A DNA stretch of 64,000 nt. Source: Candidatus Aenigmatarchaeota archaeon (GTDB lineage Archaea > Aenigmatarchaeota > Aenigmatarchaeia > CG10238-14 > SCSR01). The stretch is from contig JAVZHQ010000001.1 of NCBI GenBank assembly GCA_038998335.1, positions 160,001 through 224,000 of the forward strand. The letters are read 5' to 3'. Positions 4,169 through 14,762 of this stretch are shown piece after piece. Positions within the stretch are counted from its first letter, which is position 1. Each line of letters opens with the position of its first letter. Both the position numbers and the translations under genes were made by a program. The notes under the pieces are model-generated. The model was not told the DNA's origin and ran no database searches. It was given only the letters and a program-made list of their open reading frames with translations.

Positions 4169-5473
4169 TTAAGGATAAATTCTGTTTATTAACCTTGGAA
4201 AAGGAATAGCATCTCTTATATGCTTAAGCTTGCAAACCCACATTATAAACCTTTCTATTCCTAAGCCAAAACCTGCATGTGGTACTGAGCCGTATCTTCT
4301 TAGATCTATGTACCACTCGTAGGCTTTTGGGTCAAGTTTTTCTTCTTTTATCCTTTGGATCAATTCTTCTAAATCATGAATTCTTTGACCACCTCCAATA
4401 ATTTCTCCATAACCTTCTGGAGCAAGCATGTCTGCACTTAAAGTAACTTCAGGCCTTTTCGGATCAGGTTTATGGTAAAAAGCTTTAACTCCTTTTGGAA
4501 AATGAGTTAAGAAGAAAGGAACGTCAAACTTGCTAGCTAACCTTTTTTCTAGAATCCATGTTATATCATCACCCCACTTAATTTTAACTCCATCCTTTTG
4601 AAGAATTTCTATAGCTTGATCATAAGTTATTCTTGGGAAAGGTGGTTTGATCTTAAGTAAGTCTTGAGGGTCTCTTCCAAGTTTCTTTAGCTCTTCAGGC
4701 ATTTCCTTTGCAAGAGTATGACAAATATGAGTTATAAATTCTTCTTGCATCTTCATAGTTTGCTCTAAGTCACAAAATGGCTCTTCAACTTCAAGATGCC
4801 AAAATTCTGTTAAATGTCTTCTTGTCCTTGACTTTTCAGCTCTGAACGAAGGAGCTATAGTGAAAATTTTTCCTAGGGTTGAAATAGCAGCTTCAGCATA
4901 AAGTTGCCAACTTTGAGTTAGGTAAGCTTTTTTCCCAAAATAATTTACCTCGAACATCGTTGCTCCTCCTTCGCAAGCAGCTCCTGTTAGGCTTGGTGAA
5001 TGAAATTCCTTATAACCATGAGAAAGAAGCCATTCTCTGGCTATTTGTAAAACTTTCGACCTTATCTTAAGAATTGTTTGCATTTTTTCGCTTCTTAACC
5101 ACAAGTGCCTATAATCAAGTAAAAATTCTGGTCCATGATACTTTTTTGCAATGGGAAACCCTTCTAAAGATTTGTGAATAACTTTAATTTTTTCCGCAGT
5201 AATTTCATAACCTCCAGGTGCTCTTGGCTCCTTTTTAGAAATTCCTTCTATTTCAACTACTGATTCCAAAGTTATTTTTTCCAACTCTTCAAAAGTTTTA
5301 TCGTCAAACTTTTCTTTTTTGATAGTGCATTGAATAAATCCAGAACCATCTCTTATTATGTAAAAAATAATTCCTCCAGAGCTTCTTTTACCATAAACCC
5401 AGCCTCTAATCAAAACTTTCCCTTCTCTTCCTTTTTTCAACACTTCTTCTATTTCTGTAAGCATTTCCATCAC
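4169..5473 (-). CDS. asnS: Asparagine--tRNA ligase
   Basis: OB-fold N-terminus, YLTQSWQLY, FRAEKSRTRRHLTEFW, GEIIGGGQR, GFGLGIER. Confidence 0.93.
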   Translation of the reverse strand: MMEMLTEIEEVLKKGREGKVLIRGWVYGKRSSGGIIFYIIRDGSGFIQCTIKKEKFDDKTFEELEKITLESVVEIEGISKKEPRAPGGYEITAEKIKVIHKSLEGFPIAKKYHGPEFLLDYRHLWLRSEKMQTILKIRSKVLQIAREWLLSHGYKEFHSPSLTGAACEGGATMFEVNYFGKKAYLTQSWQLYAEAAISTLGKIFTIAPSFRAEKSRTRRHLTEFWHLEVEEPFCDLEQTMKMQEEFITHICHTLAKEMPEELKKLGRDPQDLLKIKPPFPRITYDQAIEILQKDGVKIKWGDDITWILEKRLASKFDVPFFLTHFPKGVKAFYHKPDPKRPEVTLSADMLAPEGYGEIIGGGQRIHDLEELIQRIKEEKLDPKAYEWYIDLRRYGSVPHAGFGLGIERFIMWVCKLKHIRDAIPFPRLINRIYP

Positions 5474-5505: not shown

Positions 5506-5577
5506 CGCCCTGGGGGAGATTTGAACTCCCGACCTCCTGGTTAACAGCCAGTTGCTCTACCTCTGAGCTACCAGGGC
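5506..5577 (-). tRNA. tRNA-Asn(GTT)
   Basis: Cloverleaf CTGG-CT-GTT-AA-CCAG, discriminator G. Confidence 0.95.
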
Positions 5578-6476
5578 CTTCTTATCTCACCTCCTGGAAT
5601 TATTGGCATTAAGCTTGCTTCATAAACACACTTTAATCCGCAAACATACCTTGTTAACCTTTCTAGACCAATACCAAATCCAGAGGTAGGTTTTAAACTT
5701 TTAATACTTTTCAAGTACCATTTACACTTAGCTATTTCTGTTCCTTTAATTTTTTCAACAATCTTCTTTTCTTCATATTCCCTTTCGCTTCCTGAACATG
5801 CTTCACCAAACCCAGAATCATAGATTAAATCAAAATCCAAAAGTTTTTCACCGTCAATTTTTTCATAAAACCCTCTTGAACCTTTAGGATAATGAGTTAT
5901 GAAAAAAGGTTGAATAAACTTTTTAGATAACTCTTTTTCTACTTCCCAAGGTATCTCTTTGCCAGAAGAAACATGAAGACCCATTTTTCTAGCTATTTCT
6001 AAAGCTTCTCCGTAGCTTATTCTTTTAAATGGAATTCTTGGCACTCTAAGCTTTCTGCCTAAGATCTTTAACTCTTTCTTGCATTTCTTTTTCACTTTTT
6101 TACAAACAAACTGTATTAACCTTTCTAAAACTCTCATCGCATCTTCTTGCTTACCTAAAACTTCAACTTCTACTTGCCAAAATTGCGCTAAATGTCTTTT
6201 TGTTTTCTTACATTCTTCTGGCTCTTTTCTAAAACAAGGACAAAAAGAAAATATTTTTCCAAAATGTTTTGCTAATAAAGGTTTATGGACTGTTAAAGCG
6301 CTCATTAGTTTGTATTTTTTTCCATAAGCTTCTACCTCAAAAAATTTCGCACCTCTTATTCCTGGGTCAGTTATCGAATCTAAAAGAGGAGGAAGTATTT
6401 CTAAAAACCCTTCTCGATAAAGAAACTCTCTTATCGCTTTCATAACTTCTTCTTGTACCTTAAGCACAGCTTTCAT
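5568..6476 (-). CDS. Archaeal asparagine synthetase A (AsnRS-like, no anticodon-binding domain)
   Basis: Class II aaRS core only: ITDPG, RHLAQF, SGSERE, GFGIGLERL. Confidence 0.85.
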   Translation of the reverse strand: MKAVLKVQEEVMKAIREFLYREGFLEILPPLLDSITDPGIRGAKFFEVEAYGKKYKLMSALTVHKPLLAKHFGKIFSFCPCFRKEPEECKKTKRHLAQFWQVEVEVLGKQEDAMRVLERLIQFVCKKVKKKCKKELKILGRKLRVPRIPFKRISYGEALEIARKMGLHVSSGKEIPWEVEKELSKKFIQPFFITHYPKGSRGFYEKIDGEKLLDFDLIYDSGFGEACSGSEREYEEKKIVEKIKGTEIAKCKWYLKSIKSLKPTSGFGIGLERLTRYVCGLKCVYEASLMPIIPGGEIRRPW

Positions 6477-6504
6477 TTTTTTTGAGTAAATTCCGCATCT
6501 CTTC

Positions 6505-6657
6505 TCACCTTTCCAAACTTGCGGGAATTATACTAGCAACAACTCTAGAGCCAAACTTTATCTTTAACTTTTTTCTTATAGGAGCAGGAACTAAAATCCT
6601 TCCGCGATCGTCAAGAGTAGCAACAAAACTAAAGAAATCTTCATCTTCTTGCTTCAA
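6505..6657 (-). CDS. AbrB/MazE/SpoVT/MraZ-like swapped-hairpin DNA-binding protein (50 aa, TTG start, not in ORF track)
   Basis: MKQEDEDFFSFVATLDDRGRILVPAPIRKKLKIKFGSRVVASIIPASLER contains the LDxxGRIxxPxxIRxxLxIxxGxxV signature. Confidence 0.82.
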   Translation of the reverse strand: MKQEDEDFFSFVATLDDRGRILVPAPIRKKLKIKFGSRVVASIIPASLER

Positions 6658-6842
6658 AGTTTTGACGACCGCCCAATGTTTTCACCTTTTTAATTTTTTC
6701 TCATCAAAAATATTTAAATTTATGTGGGAAATTTTTCAAGAAAAGTTTTTTGTTTAACATAAAAGTTTAACAAAAGTAGTTACAAAAAAATATAGAAAAT
6801 TCTACAATAATCAATTTAAATAAGCTAGAATAAAAGAATTTT

Positions 6843-6916
6843 ACGGGTTAATTAAACGGGTTAAAACTTACGGATTAAATTGCGGGTTTTGTACGGGTTT
6901 GAATTAGATACGGGTT
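6843..6916 (+). promoter_or_regulatory. Six direct repeats of ACGGGTT between the AbrB-like gene and ftsZ
   Basis: Copies start at 6843, 6856, 6870 (ACGGATT), 6882 (GCGGGTT), 6893 and 6910 in an AT-rich spacer. Confidence 0.7.
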
Positions 6917-7012
6917 AGACTTTACCTAATTCTAAGATAAAATATTTGAAAACCTTTATAAATGGTTTTCGATGAAACAAAATATATTTTGTTGAAGATG
7001 GGAGGATTGAAA

Positions 7013-8161
7013 ATGGAAAGTATTGTTCAAAGCGCTTTGAAGAGAACATTCGGAGAGGACTCTCCAACAACAAGATTTAAATTAGAATCAACTTCTGGAG
7101 CTACGTTTTCCAGCGTTGATTATTATAAACTAGCAGAGCAGGAATTTGGATTTTCAGTTAAAAAAGCAAAGATTGTTGTAGTAGGATGTGGAGGAGCAGG
7201 TCAAAATGCTGTGACAAGATTAACAGAAATGGGAATAGAAGGAGCAACAACTGTTTCTTTAAACTCAGACGCAAAACACTTAGCAGTAGGAAAAGCTGAC
7301 AAGAAAATTTTGATAGGAAAAGAATTAACAAAAGGTTTAGGTTGTGGTGGTTATCCAGAAATTGGAAGAAAGTGTGCAGAAGAATCAAGAAACGAAATTA
7401 AAGAAGCTTTGGAAGGAGCTGACTTAGTTTTTGCCATAGCAGGATTAGGAAAAGGAACAGGCACAGGTAGCATACCAGTAGTTTGCGAGATTGCTAAAAG
7501 TATGGGAGCAATCGTAATAGCAGTAGTTACCATGCCTTTCAAGCTTGAGGGAGCAAGGATTTCAAAAGCAGAACAAGGTTTAGCTGCTCTTAGGCAAGTT
7601 ACAGATACTGTTATAGTAATAGAAAACGATAAACTTTTGAAGTATGCTGGTAACTTATCCATACAACAAGCATTTGCAGTAGCTGATGAGCTAATAGCAA
7701 GCATGGTTAAAGGAATAACTGAAACTATTACTCTACCAAGCTTGGTGAACTTAGATTATGCAGACGTTAAAGCAGTAATGCACACAGGAGGAGTTGCTGC
7801 AATAGGTGTTGGTGAAAGTAACAGCTCAGACAGAGCAAGAGACGCTATAACAAAAGCTTTGCTCAATCCTTTGTTAGAGGTTGATTACACAGGAGCAACA
7901 GGAGCTTTGATTCACATAACAGGTGGGCCAGACCTTAAGCTAGAAGAAGTAAACATGATAGGAGAAACTGTTTCTCAACACTTAGACCCAAGCGCCCAAG
8001 TCTTCTGGGGAGCTAGAATTTTGCCAGAGTTTGAAGGAAAAGTTCAGGTAATTGCAATAATAACAGGAGTTAAGTCGCCCTACATCTTAGGTCCAGTAAC
8101 TTATGAGAGGCCTGTAGTTAAGGAAATCAGCGAGACCTTGGGAATTGATATAATTAGATAA
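7013..8161 (+). CDS. ftsZ: Cell division protein FtsZ (FtsZ2-like); likely start at 7013 after GGAGG
   Basis: GCGGAGQN, GKGTGTG, SLVNLDYADV, DYTGATGALIHITGGPDL. Confidence 0.95.
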   Translation: MESIVQSALKRTFGEDSPTTRFKLESTSGATFSSVDYYKLAEQEFGFSVKKAKIVVVGCGGAGQNAVTRLTEMGIEGATTVSLNSDAKHLAVGKADKKILIGKELTKGLGCGGYPEIGRKCAEESRNEIKEALEGADLVFAIAGLGKGTGTGSIPVVCEIAKSMGAIVIAVVTMPFKLEGARISKAEQGLAALRQVTDTVIVIENDKLLKYAGNLSIQQAFAVADELIASMVKGITETITLPSLVNLDYADVKAVMHTGGVAAIGVGESNSSDRARDAITKALLNPLLEVDYTGATGALIHITGGPDLKLEEVNMIGETVSQHLDPSAQVFWGARILPEFEGKVQVIAIITGVKSPYILGPVTYERPVVKEISETLGIDIIR

Positions 8162-8182
8162 AATGCACCTTTTTGGTGCATT
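8162..8182 (+). other. Stem-loop immediately after the ftsZ stop
   Basis: AATGCACC-TTTTT-GGTGCATT perfect 8-bp stem. Confidence 0.6.
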
Positions 8183-8198
8183 AAAAAGGGGCGATGGT

Positions 8199-8270
8199 AT
8201 GGACGAGGATATACCAGACCCATTAGAAGATGCCGACTGGGATGAGGAAGAGGAAGAAGAGTTTTGGTGA
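8199..8270 (+). CDS. Putative 23-aa acidic micropeptide
   Basis: MDEDIPDPLEDADWDEEEEEEFW; G-rich SD-like sequence upstream, T-rich tract downstream. Confidence 0.55.
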   Translation: MDEDIPDPLEDADWDEEEEEEFW

Positions 8271-8297: not shown

Positions 8298-8564
8298 TCA
8301 AACCCACTTGATTAAACCAGACTTCTGTAATTTCTCTAAAATTCCAAGAACAGCAGCTTTTACTATATCTCTATTTCCATTAACAGAAAAAACATCAACT
8401 ATTTGCTCTATATCAGATTTTCCATCGCATTGAATCCAAACAAGAAAGGCTATAGGGTCAAGAGTATAGGTTTCATTCGTGTCTTTATCAAGAAGAAGAT
8501 AAACATCCCCAGCTTTACTCCAGATTAACTCTTTTGTTCTTTGTGGTTTCTTTCCTTCGTTCAT
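8298..8564 (-). CDS. PqqD/RRE-like small protein
   Basis: LLDKDTNETYTLDPIAFLVWIQCDGK..IEQIV...LEKLQKSGLI pattern. Confidence 0.8.
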   Translation of the reverse strand: MNEGKKPQRTKELIWSKAGDVYLLLDKDTNETYTLDPIAFLVWIQCDGKSDIEQIVDVFSVNGNRDIVKAAVLGILEKLQKSGLIKWV

Positions 8565-8857
8565 ACTGCTCCAGTTTCAGCCATTTCTCCTTCTTCGCTG
8601 ACTTCTGGTGTTTGAATATGCTTGATGATTACTATATCGCCAACTGCTTGAACCATGTTATAAGGCACTACAAGACCTTTCTTACTTCCTACTAACTTTC
8701 CTAGGAATGACTCTTTCGCTGCTTCTATCACTAAAGCTCTAACTTTGAACCTTGAAAGGTCAAGCTCAACGTCTGAAACCTTTCCACAATAGAAACCTTT
8801 CCCAGTGAAAACATCTTTTCCAAACATCTCTTGAATATCTTTAACTGTTATAGGCAT
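8561..8857 (-). CDS. PRC-barrel protein (CdpB-like)
   Basis: GKDVFTGKGFYCGKVSDVELD...VPYNMVQAVGDIVII. Confidence 0.9.
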   Translation of the reverse strand: MPITVKDIQEMFGKDVFTGKGFYCGKVSDVELDLSRFKVRALVIEAAKESFLGKLVGSKKGLVVPYNMVQAVGDIVIIKHIQTPEVSEEGEMAETGAV

Positions 8858-11963: not shown

Positions 11964-14762
11964 TTAAACACTCCAGTATCTTCTAGTTTTTAAGTAGTTT
12001 CTTTCTGCTTCAAGTATGCTTTTGAAAAGCTCCTCTTCATTCTTATGAAACTTTGACAAGATCTTTATAGTAGTATCTGGGCCTATGCCTTTACCTGCTA
12101 AACAATAAGCTGCTTTTTTTCCATAAGTTAAAAATAAGTCTGCACTCTTTCTTATCCTTTCAAACTTCTTTTTTTCTTCTTCTGTTAATCCTAAGTTCCT
12201 TAACCTTTTCTTCGCTATTTTTAATGCTTGCTGATCATTAGGTTTAGTAATTCCCAGCAAGCGAGCATCACATCTTTTGCATTTCAAATTTTCTGGCAAA
12301 TCTTTTAAAACAAAAGTTTGGTTCCATTCGCAACAATTCAAACAGATGAATTTAAGCTTTGTAGCCAAAAGTCTTTGTTTGAAAAGTTTAAAAATTTCTG
12401 GTTCAGGTCTTGAAGGACCAAGAACTTCTAAGTATTTGTGCCTAAGCCCAACTTTTCCTAAAAAAGACAAGCCTGGCTTAAAAACAACTTTTATTTCTCC
12501 ATTTTGAATCTTTTTAAGCACTTCCTTACTTCTTTCTATGTCAAGCTTTTCCACTTCCAATTCCTTCAAAGTTTCCTTGAAAATTGGCGTACCAATATAA
12601 CTTTCAATTATTCTTTTTATAGTTGTTTTCCCATAATCTGCATCTTTTGCTATAGAGCCGAATCTTTTTGCAACATGCACAAACTTCCATTCAAACAACT
12701 CGCTTTTACTCGAGCTTATTTCTAGGTAATTTCTTAAAAGTTCTGGGTTTGTGTTAAAAAGTATCTCTTTGATTAATTCAAGATTTTTATTCTGAAGCTG
12801 AAGAATTATTCTATAGGCATCAGTTTTTAAACCTACTGAACCAATTCTTGGAGTTAAAAGTGCAGAAATGAATCTACCAAGAGTTTCGTTTACTAAAGAA
12901 CCAAAACAAGAATGAATAATTATTGTGTTTTCATAATCCTCAACAACGATAGTTTTGTCATCAGGAATTACACCATAACTTAACTGTTTTTTTATAGTCT
13001 CAATCATCTTCCTTGCACAATTTTTTTCTATCGGATAAAGTTCTAGCAATTTTTTTGTTGTTTCTTCTTCGTCTTCTTCAAGCAAGCTAGCAATTAAGCT
13101 TCTTAATCTTCCAACCTCTTGAGAAACTTCAAAAGGAACAGGTATTAATTCTCCTTCCCATGCTGGTATAGCAGCCTCTATATCAAGAGTTGGTTCAACT
13201 ATTATCTTATCTTCCTTTACATCCAAAACTCTCCAGGCCTCACCCTTAACTATAAAGCTACTTCCTATTCCAGCATGTAAAGCAACAAACTCCTCGTCTA
13301 AAACCCCAACAAAACTATTATCTAAAGAATTAAAAATTTTGAATTGCTTAACGTCAGGAATTGTTGAAAGTTGGTTAAAATAATACTCAAAACCCCTTCT
13401 TCTCTTTTTTATTTCTTTATCCAGGAATATTAGGCCTAGTTGCTGAAGTTGTTTACAAACTTCTAAAAATTCTGTATAACTTAAATTTCTGTAAGGATAA
13501 GCTCTTTTAACTATTTCATAGGCCTTTTCAACGCTTATTCTCCAAAAATCATGAGTGAGGCCAACTATCTGATGAGCTAAAACATCATAGGAATTTTCAT
13601 GAAATCTCAATTCTTCCAACTCTTCTTTCAAAGCTTTTCTTGCTATTACTGCAGACTCAAAAATATCATCTTCGTCAGTTGAAATTATTATACCTTTAGC
13701 CACTCTTTCAACTTCATGCCCACTTCTTCCAACTCTTTGAATTAATTGTGTTACTTGCCTAGGACTCATATACTGAAGAACTAAATCCACGCTACCTACA
13801 TCTATTCCAAGTTGTAAAGAACTTGTTGAAACTATTGATTTTATTTTTTCCTGTTTAAATTCTTTCTCAGTTTTGATTCTAATCTCTTTACTTAAGCTTG
13901 AGTGATGCACACCAACAGGAAAGTTTTTATCTATGGCTTTTATTCTTGATGCTAAAATTTCAGCAAACTCTCTTGTGTTAGTAAATGTTAAAACTGAACG
14001 AGATCTTTTAATCATTTCCATTATAAACCTAAGCCTTGCAGCAGTTTCTGGAGAAGCGAATATTTTTTCGCTTATTTTCTTATCTATACGCTCAGGTCTA
14101 GGATGAAACACTTTTATTTTCATTCCTTTTGGAAAAGTTGCTTTTATTATTTCTATTGGCCTGTTAGGTGATATGAACTTTGCAACTTTTTCTGGTGAAC
14201 CTACGGTTGCACTTAATCCTATAACCTGAAACTCTTTACAAATTTCTCTCAATCTTTCTAGGGCTAAACTCAATTGCGTTCCTCTTTTTGAGTCAACTAT
14301 TTCATGCACTTCATCTATTACTACCCATTTCACGTTGCTCAAATGTTCCCTTATCTTCTTTCCAGGCAAAATTGCTTGTAAAGTTTCTGGGGTTGTGATA
14401 AGTAAAGAAGGAGGGAACTCTACTTGCAACTTTCTTTCGTAAGCGCTTGTATCTCCATGTCTCACAGAAGCTTCTATTCCAATTTCATTACACCACCATA
14501 AAAGCCTTTCCAGAAGGTCTCGGTTAAGGGCTTTAAGAGGAGTAATGTAAAGAATACTTATAGGCTTAGGCTTTTGTTCTATAAGAAAATGAAATAAAGG
14601 AAGCATACAACTTTCAGTTTTTCCTGTGCCTGTTGGAGCAATAACTAAAACATTCTTTCCTTCTAAAATAGGTGGAATTGCAAGTTTTTGCGGTAAAGTT
14701 GGTTGTTTAAACCTTTTTTCTATAATTTTTCTTAGTTGAGGGTTAAGTAGCTCAAATACCAT
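11964..14762 (-). CDS. lhr: Lhr-family DEAH-box helicase
   Basis: APTGTGKT, ITTPE, DEVHE, SAT, QRVGRSGH, C-terminal Zn motif. Confidence 0.9.
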   Translation of the reverse strand: MVFELLNPQLRKIIEKRFKQPTLPQKLAIPPILEGKNVLVIAPTGTGKTESCMLPLFHFLIEQKPKPISILYITPLKALNRDLLERLLWWCNEIGIEASVRHGDTSAYERKLQVEFPPSLLITTPETLQAILPGKKIREHLSNVKWVVIDEVHEIVDSKRGTQLSLALERLREICKEFQVIGLSATVGSPEKVAKFISPNRPIEIIKATFPKGMKIKVFHPRPERIDKKISEKIFASPETAARLRFIMEMIKRSRSVLTFTNTREFAEILASRIKAIDKNFPVGVHHSSLSKEIRIKTEKEFKQEKIKSIVSTSSLQLGIDVGSVDLVLQYMSPRQVTQLIQRVGRSGHEVERVAKGIIISTDEDDIFESAVIARKALKEELEELRFHENSYDVLAHQIVGLTHDFWRISVEKAYEIVKRAYPYRNLSYTEFLEVCKQLQQLGLIFLDKEIKKRRRGFEYYFNQLSTIPDVKQFKIFNSLDNSFVGVLDEEFVALHAGIGSSFIVKGEAWRVLDVKEDKIIVEPTLDIEAAIPAWEGELIPVPFEVSQEVGRLRSLIASLLEEDEEETTKKLLELYPIEKNCARKMIETIKKQLSYGVIPDDKTIVVEDYENTIIIHSCFGSLVNETLGRFISALLTPRIGSVGLKTDAYRIILQLQNKNLELIKEILFNTNPELLRNYLEISSSKSELFEWKFVHVAKRFGSIAKDADYGKTTIKRIIESYIGTPIFKETLKELEVEKLDIERSKEVLKKIQNGEIKVVFKPGLSFLGKVGLRHKYLEVLGPSRPEPEIFKLFKQRLLATKLKFICLNCCEWNQTFVLKDLPENLKCKRCDARLLGITKPNDQQALKIAKKRLRNLGLTEEEKKKFERIRKSADLFLTYGKKAAYCLAGKGIGPDTTIKILSKFHKNEEELFKSILEAERNYLKTRRYWSV

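Follow-up and report, generated by a model that had tools for sequence, protein, structure and literature searches.

An array of six short repeats lies upstream of the cell-division gene ftsZ2 in this tiny Candidatus Aenigmatarchaeota archaeon from a hot spring, at positions 6843–6916 (+ strand) of the window, by which we mean the whole 64,000-nt stretch of DNA analysed. The repeats are a selected element tied to ftsZ2. They appear to form one module of a control region of about 220 nt (6793–7012) that is common across the family. We consider, with slightly less than even confidence and from sequence comparison, that the array consists of cis-regulatory sites of ftsZ2 read by a co-evolving factor encoded elsewhere in the genome. 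A 50-aa open reading frame (ORF) of the AbrB/SpoVT family is divergent from ftsZ2 across a spacer of 355 nt (6658–7012), and the earlier note on this DNA had proposed its product as the reader.

The ftsZ gene (7013–8161, + strand) encodes 382 aa with Pfam Tubulin and FtsZ_C domains and scores 410.8 bits against TIGR00065. Its ATG at 7013 is preceded by GGAGG (7001–7005). The source genome (1,009,365 bases in 9 contigs, 33% G+C) belongs to genus g1 and contains two FtsZ paralogues. The second, at C1:776463, lies directly upstream of an Spt5/NusG gene. We take this placement to be the context of FtsZ1, and the FtsZ2 label for the gene at 7013 rests on it.

Exact copies of ACGGGTT begin at 6843, 6856, 6893, and 6910 on the + strand, and two copies carry one mismatch (ACGGATT at 6870 and GCGGGTT at 6882). 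The start-to-start spacing along the array is 13, 14, 12, 11, and 17 nt. The earlier note had counted six ACGGGTT repeats; six same-strand units at a spacing of 11–17 nt are indeed present, of which four are exact and two degenerate. The window holds six exact copies against 1.88 expected, a number reached in one of 100 shuffles, and four of them fall inside 74 nt. A scan for further arrays, as the earlier note had suggested, was run on the 1.0-Mb genome and showed the cluster upstream of ftsZ2 to be unique. There are 22 exact copies on both strands, and this array is the sole site with at least two of them inside 60 nt and the sole cluster of at least three CGGGTT inside 100 nt. The region upstream of ftsZ1 was examined and has no array.

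We compared the region among 70 genomes of one Aenigmatarchaeota family, covering 27 genera. These are metagenome-assembled genomes (MAGs) that are 56–96% complete. Positions 6690–7013 are matched at the DNA level in 47 of the 70 genomes and in 20 of the 27 genera. The proximal 93 nt are likewise matched in 47 of the 69 family genomes besides the source genome, and sister families show weak traces only. In all 30 loci fetched around ftsZ2, the gene lies directly downstream of the conserved region, with 80–100% amino acid identity. The spacer is conserved far above the synonymous sites of ftsZ2. Between the source genome and G005 the spacer DNA is 88% identical, at a synonymous difference in ftsZ2 of 0.47; for G013 the values are 75% and 0.82, the latter saturated.

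Repeats were counted in 28 of these loci (two were too short) as a G/C-containing 5-mer recurring at −200 to −75, with the stretch from −400 to −276 as control. At least three copies of one such 5-mer are present in 26 of the 28 loci, compared with 6 of the 28 control stretches, and at least four copies in 17 compared with one. The array stays with ftsZ2 whichever gene is the upstream neighbor. The repeat cores are kept while the spacers vary among relatives, with a spacing of 7–21 nt across loci (most commonly 11–13 nt). The family-wide conservation and the presence of arrays in 26 of 28 loci bear out the view that the repeats are a real element attached to ftsZ2.

The motif itself differs by genus. 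It is ACGGGTT in g1, TCGGGCT in g11, TCGGGTT in g20 and g36, CTCGT in g6, and GGTWA-like in g32. All copies of the GGGTT type lie on the sense strand of ftsZ2. Within one genome the copies of the array agree, and between genera the motif changes in concert, which points to a reader that co-evolves with its site.

The surrounding elements keep a common order in the loci. A TATA-like box is followed after 18–19 nt by TAC, three to seven repeats, a dyad with the box CTAATTCTAAGA, and then the proximal elements GAAAACC, TATA box, GGTTTTC, TTCGATG, an A/T palindrome, AGGAGG, and ATG. Promoter and TATA box calls were read by eye from locus printouts. In the window, the distal module (6793–6822, + strand), supported also by DNA matches, comprises the dyad TAGAA-AA-TTCTA (6793–6804) and the consensus-like TATA box TTTAAATA (6815–6822). 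The box stands 18–19 nt ahead of the conserved TAC (6842–6844), where the array begins, and the module is predicted to act as a promoter. An inverted repeat (6901–6932) with arms at 6901–6909 and 6924–6932 encloses the last repeat copy and overlaps the box CTAATTCTAAGA (6926–6937); its arms are kept in G001 with a two-sided change. A second inverted repeat (6948–6970), GAAAACC (6948–6954) and GGTTTTC (6964–6970), brackets the proximal TATA box TTTATAAA (6955–6962). The leader that follows (6968–7012, + strand) is nearly invariant and contains TTCGATG (6968–6974), a perfect palindrome of 18 nt (6976–6993), and the GGAGG preceding the ATG. An alignment of 29 leaders has 22 invariant columns.

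The repeats are predicted to be DNA sites that bind several copies of one sequence-specific factor, which would set the transcription of ftsZ2. This factor would be encoded elsewhere in the genome. Since the copies of a genome all have one motif, and this motif changes from genus to genus, the factor would have evolved together with its site. Several points weigh against such a reading. No candidate for the factor was found. Paralogues of the AbrB/MazE family are present in 59 of the 70 genomes, and another AbrB-fold protein could read the array. The related genomes are non-independent samples, and a gene not found in incomplete MAGs is not shown to be absent. A rigid oligomer that binds DNA cooperatively would not sit well with the irregular spacing (7–21 nt). 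In several genera the distal TATA-like box keeps its constant distance of 18–19 nt to the array start, and the sole RNA contig starts at 6947, before the proximal TATA box. These last two observations imply that the region may be transcribed, in part or in full, and function as RNA.

In such a model, transcription would start at TAC (about 6843) from the distal TATA box, and CGGGUU units would lie in a ftsZ2 leader of about 170 nt. There, an RNA-binding protein, in several copies, or a complementary RNA would sit on the repeats and control transcript stability or translation jointly with hairpin-capable elements further downstream. We regard this as unlikely, but it has evidence in its favor. 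A consensus-like TATA box 18–19 nt before TAC was read in loci of g1, g8, g9, g11, g15, and g6. The orientation of the repeats is strictly confined to one strand, their spacing is variable, and the invariance of the leader is extreme. Among 20 distinct rows of the proximal inverted repeat, 114 cells are Watson–Crick pairs, 11 are G–T, 3 are A–C, and 32 are other, so G–T outnumbers A–C. A single RNA-library contig from a close relative (one study) spans 6947–7194, and the ftsZ2 coding region is also covered. The ftsZ2 gene of this relative is thus probably expressed, and the proximal inverted repeat and the palindrome are transcribed in at least some molecules.

The same RNA contig also speaks against a leader role of the repeats. 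It ends at 6947 without a loose end, whereas DNA contigs of the same variant extend as far as 6777, and no RNA is seen over the repeats. This suggests, weakly, that transcripts begin about 66 nt ahead of the ATG and downstream of the array. The RNA run (X4) has no cover over 6300–6946, which says nothing on whether the ORF is silent. RNAalifold found no consensus pairs in the 29 leaders, in a MAFFT alignment that places the 5′ arm of the proximal inverted repeat wrongly. The fold of the single sequence 6843–7020 has z = −1.37. An Rfam scan of 6300–7300 at E of 1 or less returned only three chance-level matches, and a scan for sigma-70 promoters and terminators, a model that is not archaeal, remained at the level of shuffled sequence. 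Two-sided changes preserve the symmetry of both the proximal inverted repeat and the 18-nt palindrome; in the palindrome, G–T and A–C mismatches stand at 2 versus 2, and the distal dyad carries A–C mismatches. The proximal TATA box lies at the canonical distance from the Shine–Dalgarno site and the ATG, with the implied start inside the palindrome. We therefore lean cautiously, at a little under an even chance, to action of the repeats at the DNA level, because the folding tests are negative, the palindrome has no clear excess of G–T, and the hint of an RNA 5′ end lies downstream of the repeats.

It is more doubtful still that ftsZ2 is controlled, at least where the ORF exists, by an MraZ-like oligomer of the ORF product on the ACGGGTT array. 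The gene is adjacent and divergent, and its product has a DNA-binding domain of the AbrB family with a D-x-x-x-R-like motif. Excerpts of one report (PMC8475190) describe MraZ boxes as direct repeats (AAAGTG[T/G]) that occur once per genome before the division cluster, in M. genitalium only at the mraZ promoter. The ORF (6508–6657, − strand, stop codon 6505–6507) starts with TTG and contains LDDRGRILVPAPIRKKL; it has a Shine–Dalgarno-like GGTGA at 6682–6686. It passes TIGR01439, the NCBIfam model of the AbrB family, marginally (28.9 bits versus a cut-off of 28.3, E = 6.9e-7). Both Pfam matches are below threshold. MraZ is the best of them (18.6 versus 23 bits, or 16.2 bits in a whole-genome scan), and MazE_antitoxin scores 17.6 versus 24.7 bits. 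A profile of six orthologues searched against solved structures matched PHS018 (2glw) with E = 6e-4, and SpoVT and Sso7c4-type AbrB weakly. The AbrB-fold assignment of the earlier note thus holds, narrowly, on this one family model together with the 2glw match.

In structure prediction, the AlphaFold2 monomer of the ORF product (predicted local distance difference test score of 71, from an alignment of six rows) has two short paired strands, a helix at residues 29–35, a strand at 44–47, and a short helix; a fourth strand was not seen in the model. The top Foldseek matches are SpoVT, AbrB-N, Sso7c4, and PHS018, all non-significant with E of about 1 or more. The homodimer prediction scored 0.40 versus a mark of 0.42 and was used neither way. 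Among 5.8 billion proteins searched with a profile, 46 small relatives of 58–102 aa were found, several of them named AbrB family by JGI. The relatives share an N-terminal segment (DVKTWKKEY) and start about eight codons further upstream at GTG. That codon is GCG here and GCG or GCA in genus g1, and the g1 proteins lack the segment because this ancestral start was lost. A search for longer fused relatives found none, and the bacterial look-alikes are ordinary AbrB/MazE-type proteins of 76–94 aa, not MraZ. The ratio of nonsynonymous to synonymous change (dN/dS) is 0.13–0.51 for the ORF, which indicates purifying selection, compared with 0.008–0.04 for ftsZ2. Judged from its sequence, the ORF is a real gene under moderate constraint and a new member of the AbrB family. 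Membership in the MraZ family was rejected, as three of four MraZ features fail: the protein is a single short domain, it scores below the Pfam gathering cut-off, and its operon position is wrong.

The distribution of the ORF does not follow that of the array. With the six-orthologue profile and a clear match defined as E of 1e-11 or better, orthologues are present in 8 of the 70 genomes (G000, which is the source genome, G081, G005, G001, G043, G045, G013, and G019; truncated in G001), against 47 with the ftsZ2 region. The remaining profile matches (E of 4e-6 or weaker) are generic AbrB paralogues. No orthologue was found in the nine g20 and eleven g6 genomes examined except in G081, although g20 uses the same CGGGTT motif. 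The match in G081 is on contig C128 (L020), which is of g1 type, shares 97% identity with the window across the spacer, and is not an independent case. G081 is binned in g20 and has a g20-type ftsZ2 locus of its own in addition to this contig; it is probably a mixed bin. Six genomes (G075, G010, G060, G063, G014, and G018) keep the ftsZ2 region with zero PF04014 matches; beyond these six, the presence of PF04014 is too patchy and rich in paralogues to inform.

Among close relatives, the ORF has been lost repeatedly while the array was kept. A deletion in G001 has spared 21 native codons and joined codon 21 to the remnant of the downstream asparagine synthetase A-like (asnA-like) gene. The ORF was not seen in the 569 nt upstream of ftsZ2 in G004, is a decayed relic in G041 and G044, and was not found in G012, where the asparagine–tRNA ligase gene (asnS) follows directly. 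In G019, aspS separates the ORF from the array, 1.45 kb away, and the ORF remains with asnS. The association of the ORF with ftsZ that the earlier note looked for is therefore largely missing, and its proposal that the ORF product reads the repeats fares badly. The loss of the ancestral GTG start in g1 counts against it as well.

The ORF is found instead with the genes that follow it. In all seven loci with an intact orthologue, it immediately precedes an asnA-like gene or asnS in the same orientation (with a tRNA-like stretch between them in G005). Here, the next gene in the operon (5568–6476, − strand) encodes an AsnRS-like catalytic core without an anticodon domain, which scores 332 bits against NF005052, below the cut-off of 368. 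It is followed by asnS (4169–5473, − strand; NF003037, 499.6 bits versus a cut-off of 414). A TATA-like box (6711–6718) with a conserved box directly upstream (6720–6730) lies on the − strand at 6711–6730, is kept in all six orthologue loci compared, and is probably the promoter of the ORF/asnA-like/asnS operon. Rather than reading the repeats, the ORF product more likely regulates this operon by way of the conserved promoter box of its own gene, as a dispensable accessory regulator of the AbrB type.

In G013, the ORF and the AsnA-like core form one frame of 398 aa (L006 466–1662, − strand; NF005052, 436 versus 368 bits). Its N-terminus, searched in a large protein database, returned only this fusion itself. 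As a singleton the fusion is weak Rosetta-stone evidence, and it may be an assembly error that merged two frames. It would join a DNA-binding domain to a class II synthetase-like core, the arrangement seen in BirA. The DNA around the Shine–Dalgarno site and first codons of the ORF (6662–6690) is conserved even in G041 and G044 (L032 and L036), where the ORF has decayed; this stretch could by itself serve the asnS operon as a leader or operator.

It is very improbable that the array represents initiator boxes of a replication origin, as the earlier note had considered, or a neutral minisatellite born by slippage: the short iterated motifs in a long AT-rich spacer and a copy number of two to seven among relatives would suit either, but Cdc6_C is above its cut-off only on contig C2 (a weak match in the window, 13392–13532, is inside a 945-aa frame 6 kb away), the copies have one orientation and no flanked unwinding element, the cumulative GC skew has no turning point at the array, the array follows ftsZ2 whatever its upstream neighbor, and the cores are conserved while the spacers vary, in a region conserved beyond synonymous sites.

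Two other proteins were tried as readers and rejected. No ribbon-helix-helix (RHH) ORF is present upstream of ftsZ2. The single RHH_1 match of the genome is at C2:124123, beside DNA methyltransferases and an integrase, and this mobile-element context led us to reject it. The surrounding region (C2:121500–126800, L083) holds two DNA-methyltransferase-like genes, the 44-aa RHH protein, and a tyrosine-recombinase-like gene, typed from their translations, and is probably an integrated mobile element. The second candidate was a PqqD-like (RRE-type) protein encoded at 8298–8564 (− strand). With this query, it was found in 30 of the 70 genomes but in none of the 11 g6 genomes, and g20 gave one weak match (E = 1e-4); it was rejected as a universal reader. 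This protein is 60–98% identical among relatives and is encoded beside ftsZ2 in many genera. Together with a PRC-barrel gene (8561–8857, − strand) it forms an operon convergent on ftsZ2. PRC-barrel proteins are division factors in haloarchaea, and excerpts of PMC10120694 report only one DPANN genome with such a gene near ftsZ.

Directly after the stop codon of ftsZ2, there is a perfect 8-bp stem with a T5 loop (AATGCACC TTTTT GGTGCATT, 8162–8183), which G001 shares and G005 lacks. It is followed on the same strand by an acidic micro-ORF of 23 aa, MDEDIPDPLEDADWDEEEEEEFW (8199–8270, + strand), with no Pfam match. A similar micro-ORF lies 3′ of ftsZ2 in most of 27 loci, in at least ten genera, with the pattern [DE]-E-D-x-[WY]-D-P-[LF], an acidic run, and a terminal F or W. 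We take it to resemble the C-terminal peptide of bacterial FtsZ. FtsZ2 here ends in LGIDIIR, unlike bacterial FtsZ with its C-terminal peptide.

With the array and leader, a DPANN lineage has a concrete cis-element for ftsZ2 that spans the family; CdrS was reported missing from DPANN. This is of interest because CdrS is the known regulator of ftsZ2. Since the motif classes are genus-specific, co-variation with them offers a way to the reader. The obvious neighbor gene is a poor candidate for this reader, and knowing so saves a misdirected experiment. It is possible, at somewhat less than an even chance, that Aenigmatarchaeota control ftsZ2 by an undescribed system, in which an iteron-like array, a co-evolving dedicated reader (protein or RNA), and a near-invariant leader would act within a conserved ‘division island’ that also encodes the acidic micro-protein, the PqqD-like protein, and the PRC-barrel protein.

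At the level of design, the likeness to the MraZ boxes of the bacterial dcw cluster is real. Both are runs of short same-orientation repeats before a division gene, unique in the genome, and the ORF, like MraZ, is a small AbrB-superfamily domain with an LDxxGRxxxP-type motif. MraZ has two tandem domains in about 150 aa, whereas the ORF and its orthologues have one domain of 50–68 aa. The mraZ gene is the first, co-directional gene of the division cluster; the ORF is divergent from ftsZ2 and heads the asnA-like/asnS operon. The repeats here are irregularly spaced and persist in most genomes without the ORF. Within the AbrB/SpoVT/MazE looped-hinge-helix family (TIGR01439 and PF04014), the ORF agrees in its TIGR01439 score and in its structure matches. 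It differs in being shorter after the third strand, with a basic tail, in the extra N-terminal segment conserved in its relatives, and in having no toxin partner while preceding genes of the aminoacyl-tRNA-synthetase type.

The cdrS–ftsZ2 operon of Euryarchaeota is comparable in having dedicated control and a small regulator gene beside ftsZ2. Excerpts of PMC7439475 describe CdrS as an RHH protein co-transcribed upstream of ftsZ2 and as present in every major archaeal group except DPANN; the earlier note had likewise seen no CdrS-type ORF upstream of this ftsZ2, in agreement with that absence. A literature search, covering titles and the openings of abstracts, returned nothing on the control of ftsZ2 in Aenigmatarchaeota. 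To our knowledge, what is known on the control of FtsZ-based division in archaea comes from CdrS and CdrL of haloarchaea only. Iterons of plasmid Rep proteins, the ParR–parC system, and the heptads of the omega repressor are arrays read by small oligomerizing proteins. Their same-orientation repeats change together with the cognate binder between lineages, as the repeats here would between genera. The array upstream of ftsZ2 differs from them in being chromosomal and fixed before one housekeeping gene, and in that an adjacent cognate gene is missing in most genomes. The array and its leader are best filed as a lineage-specific variant of the repeat-array type of cis-regulator, and as such they are new.

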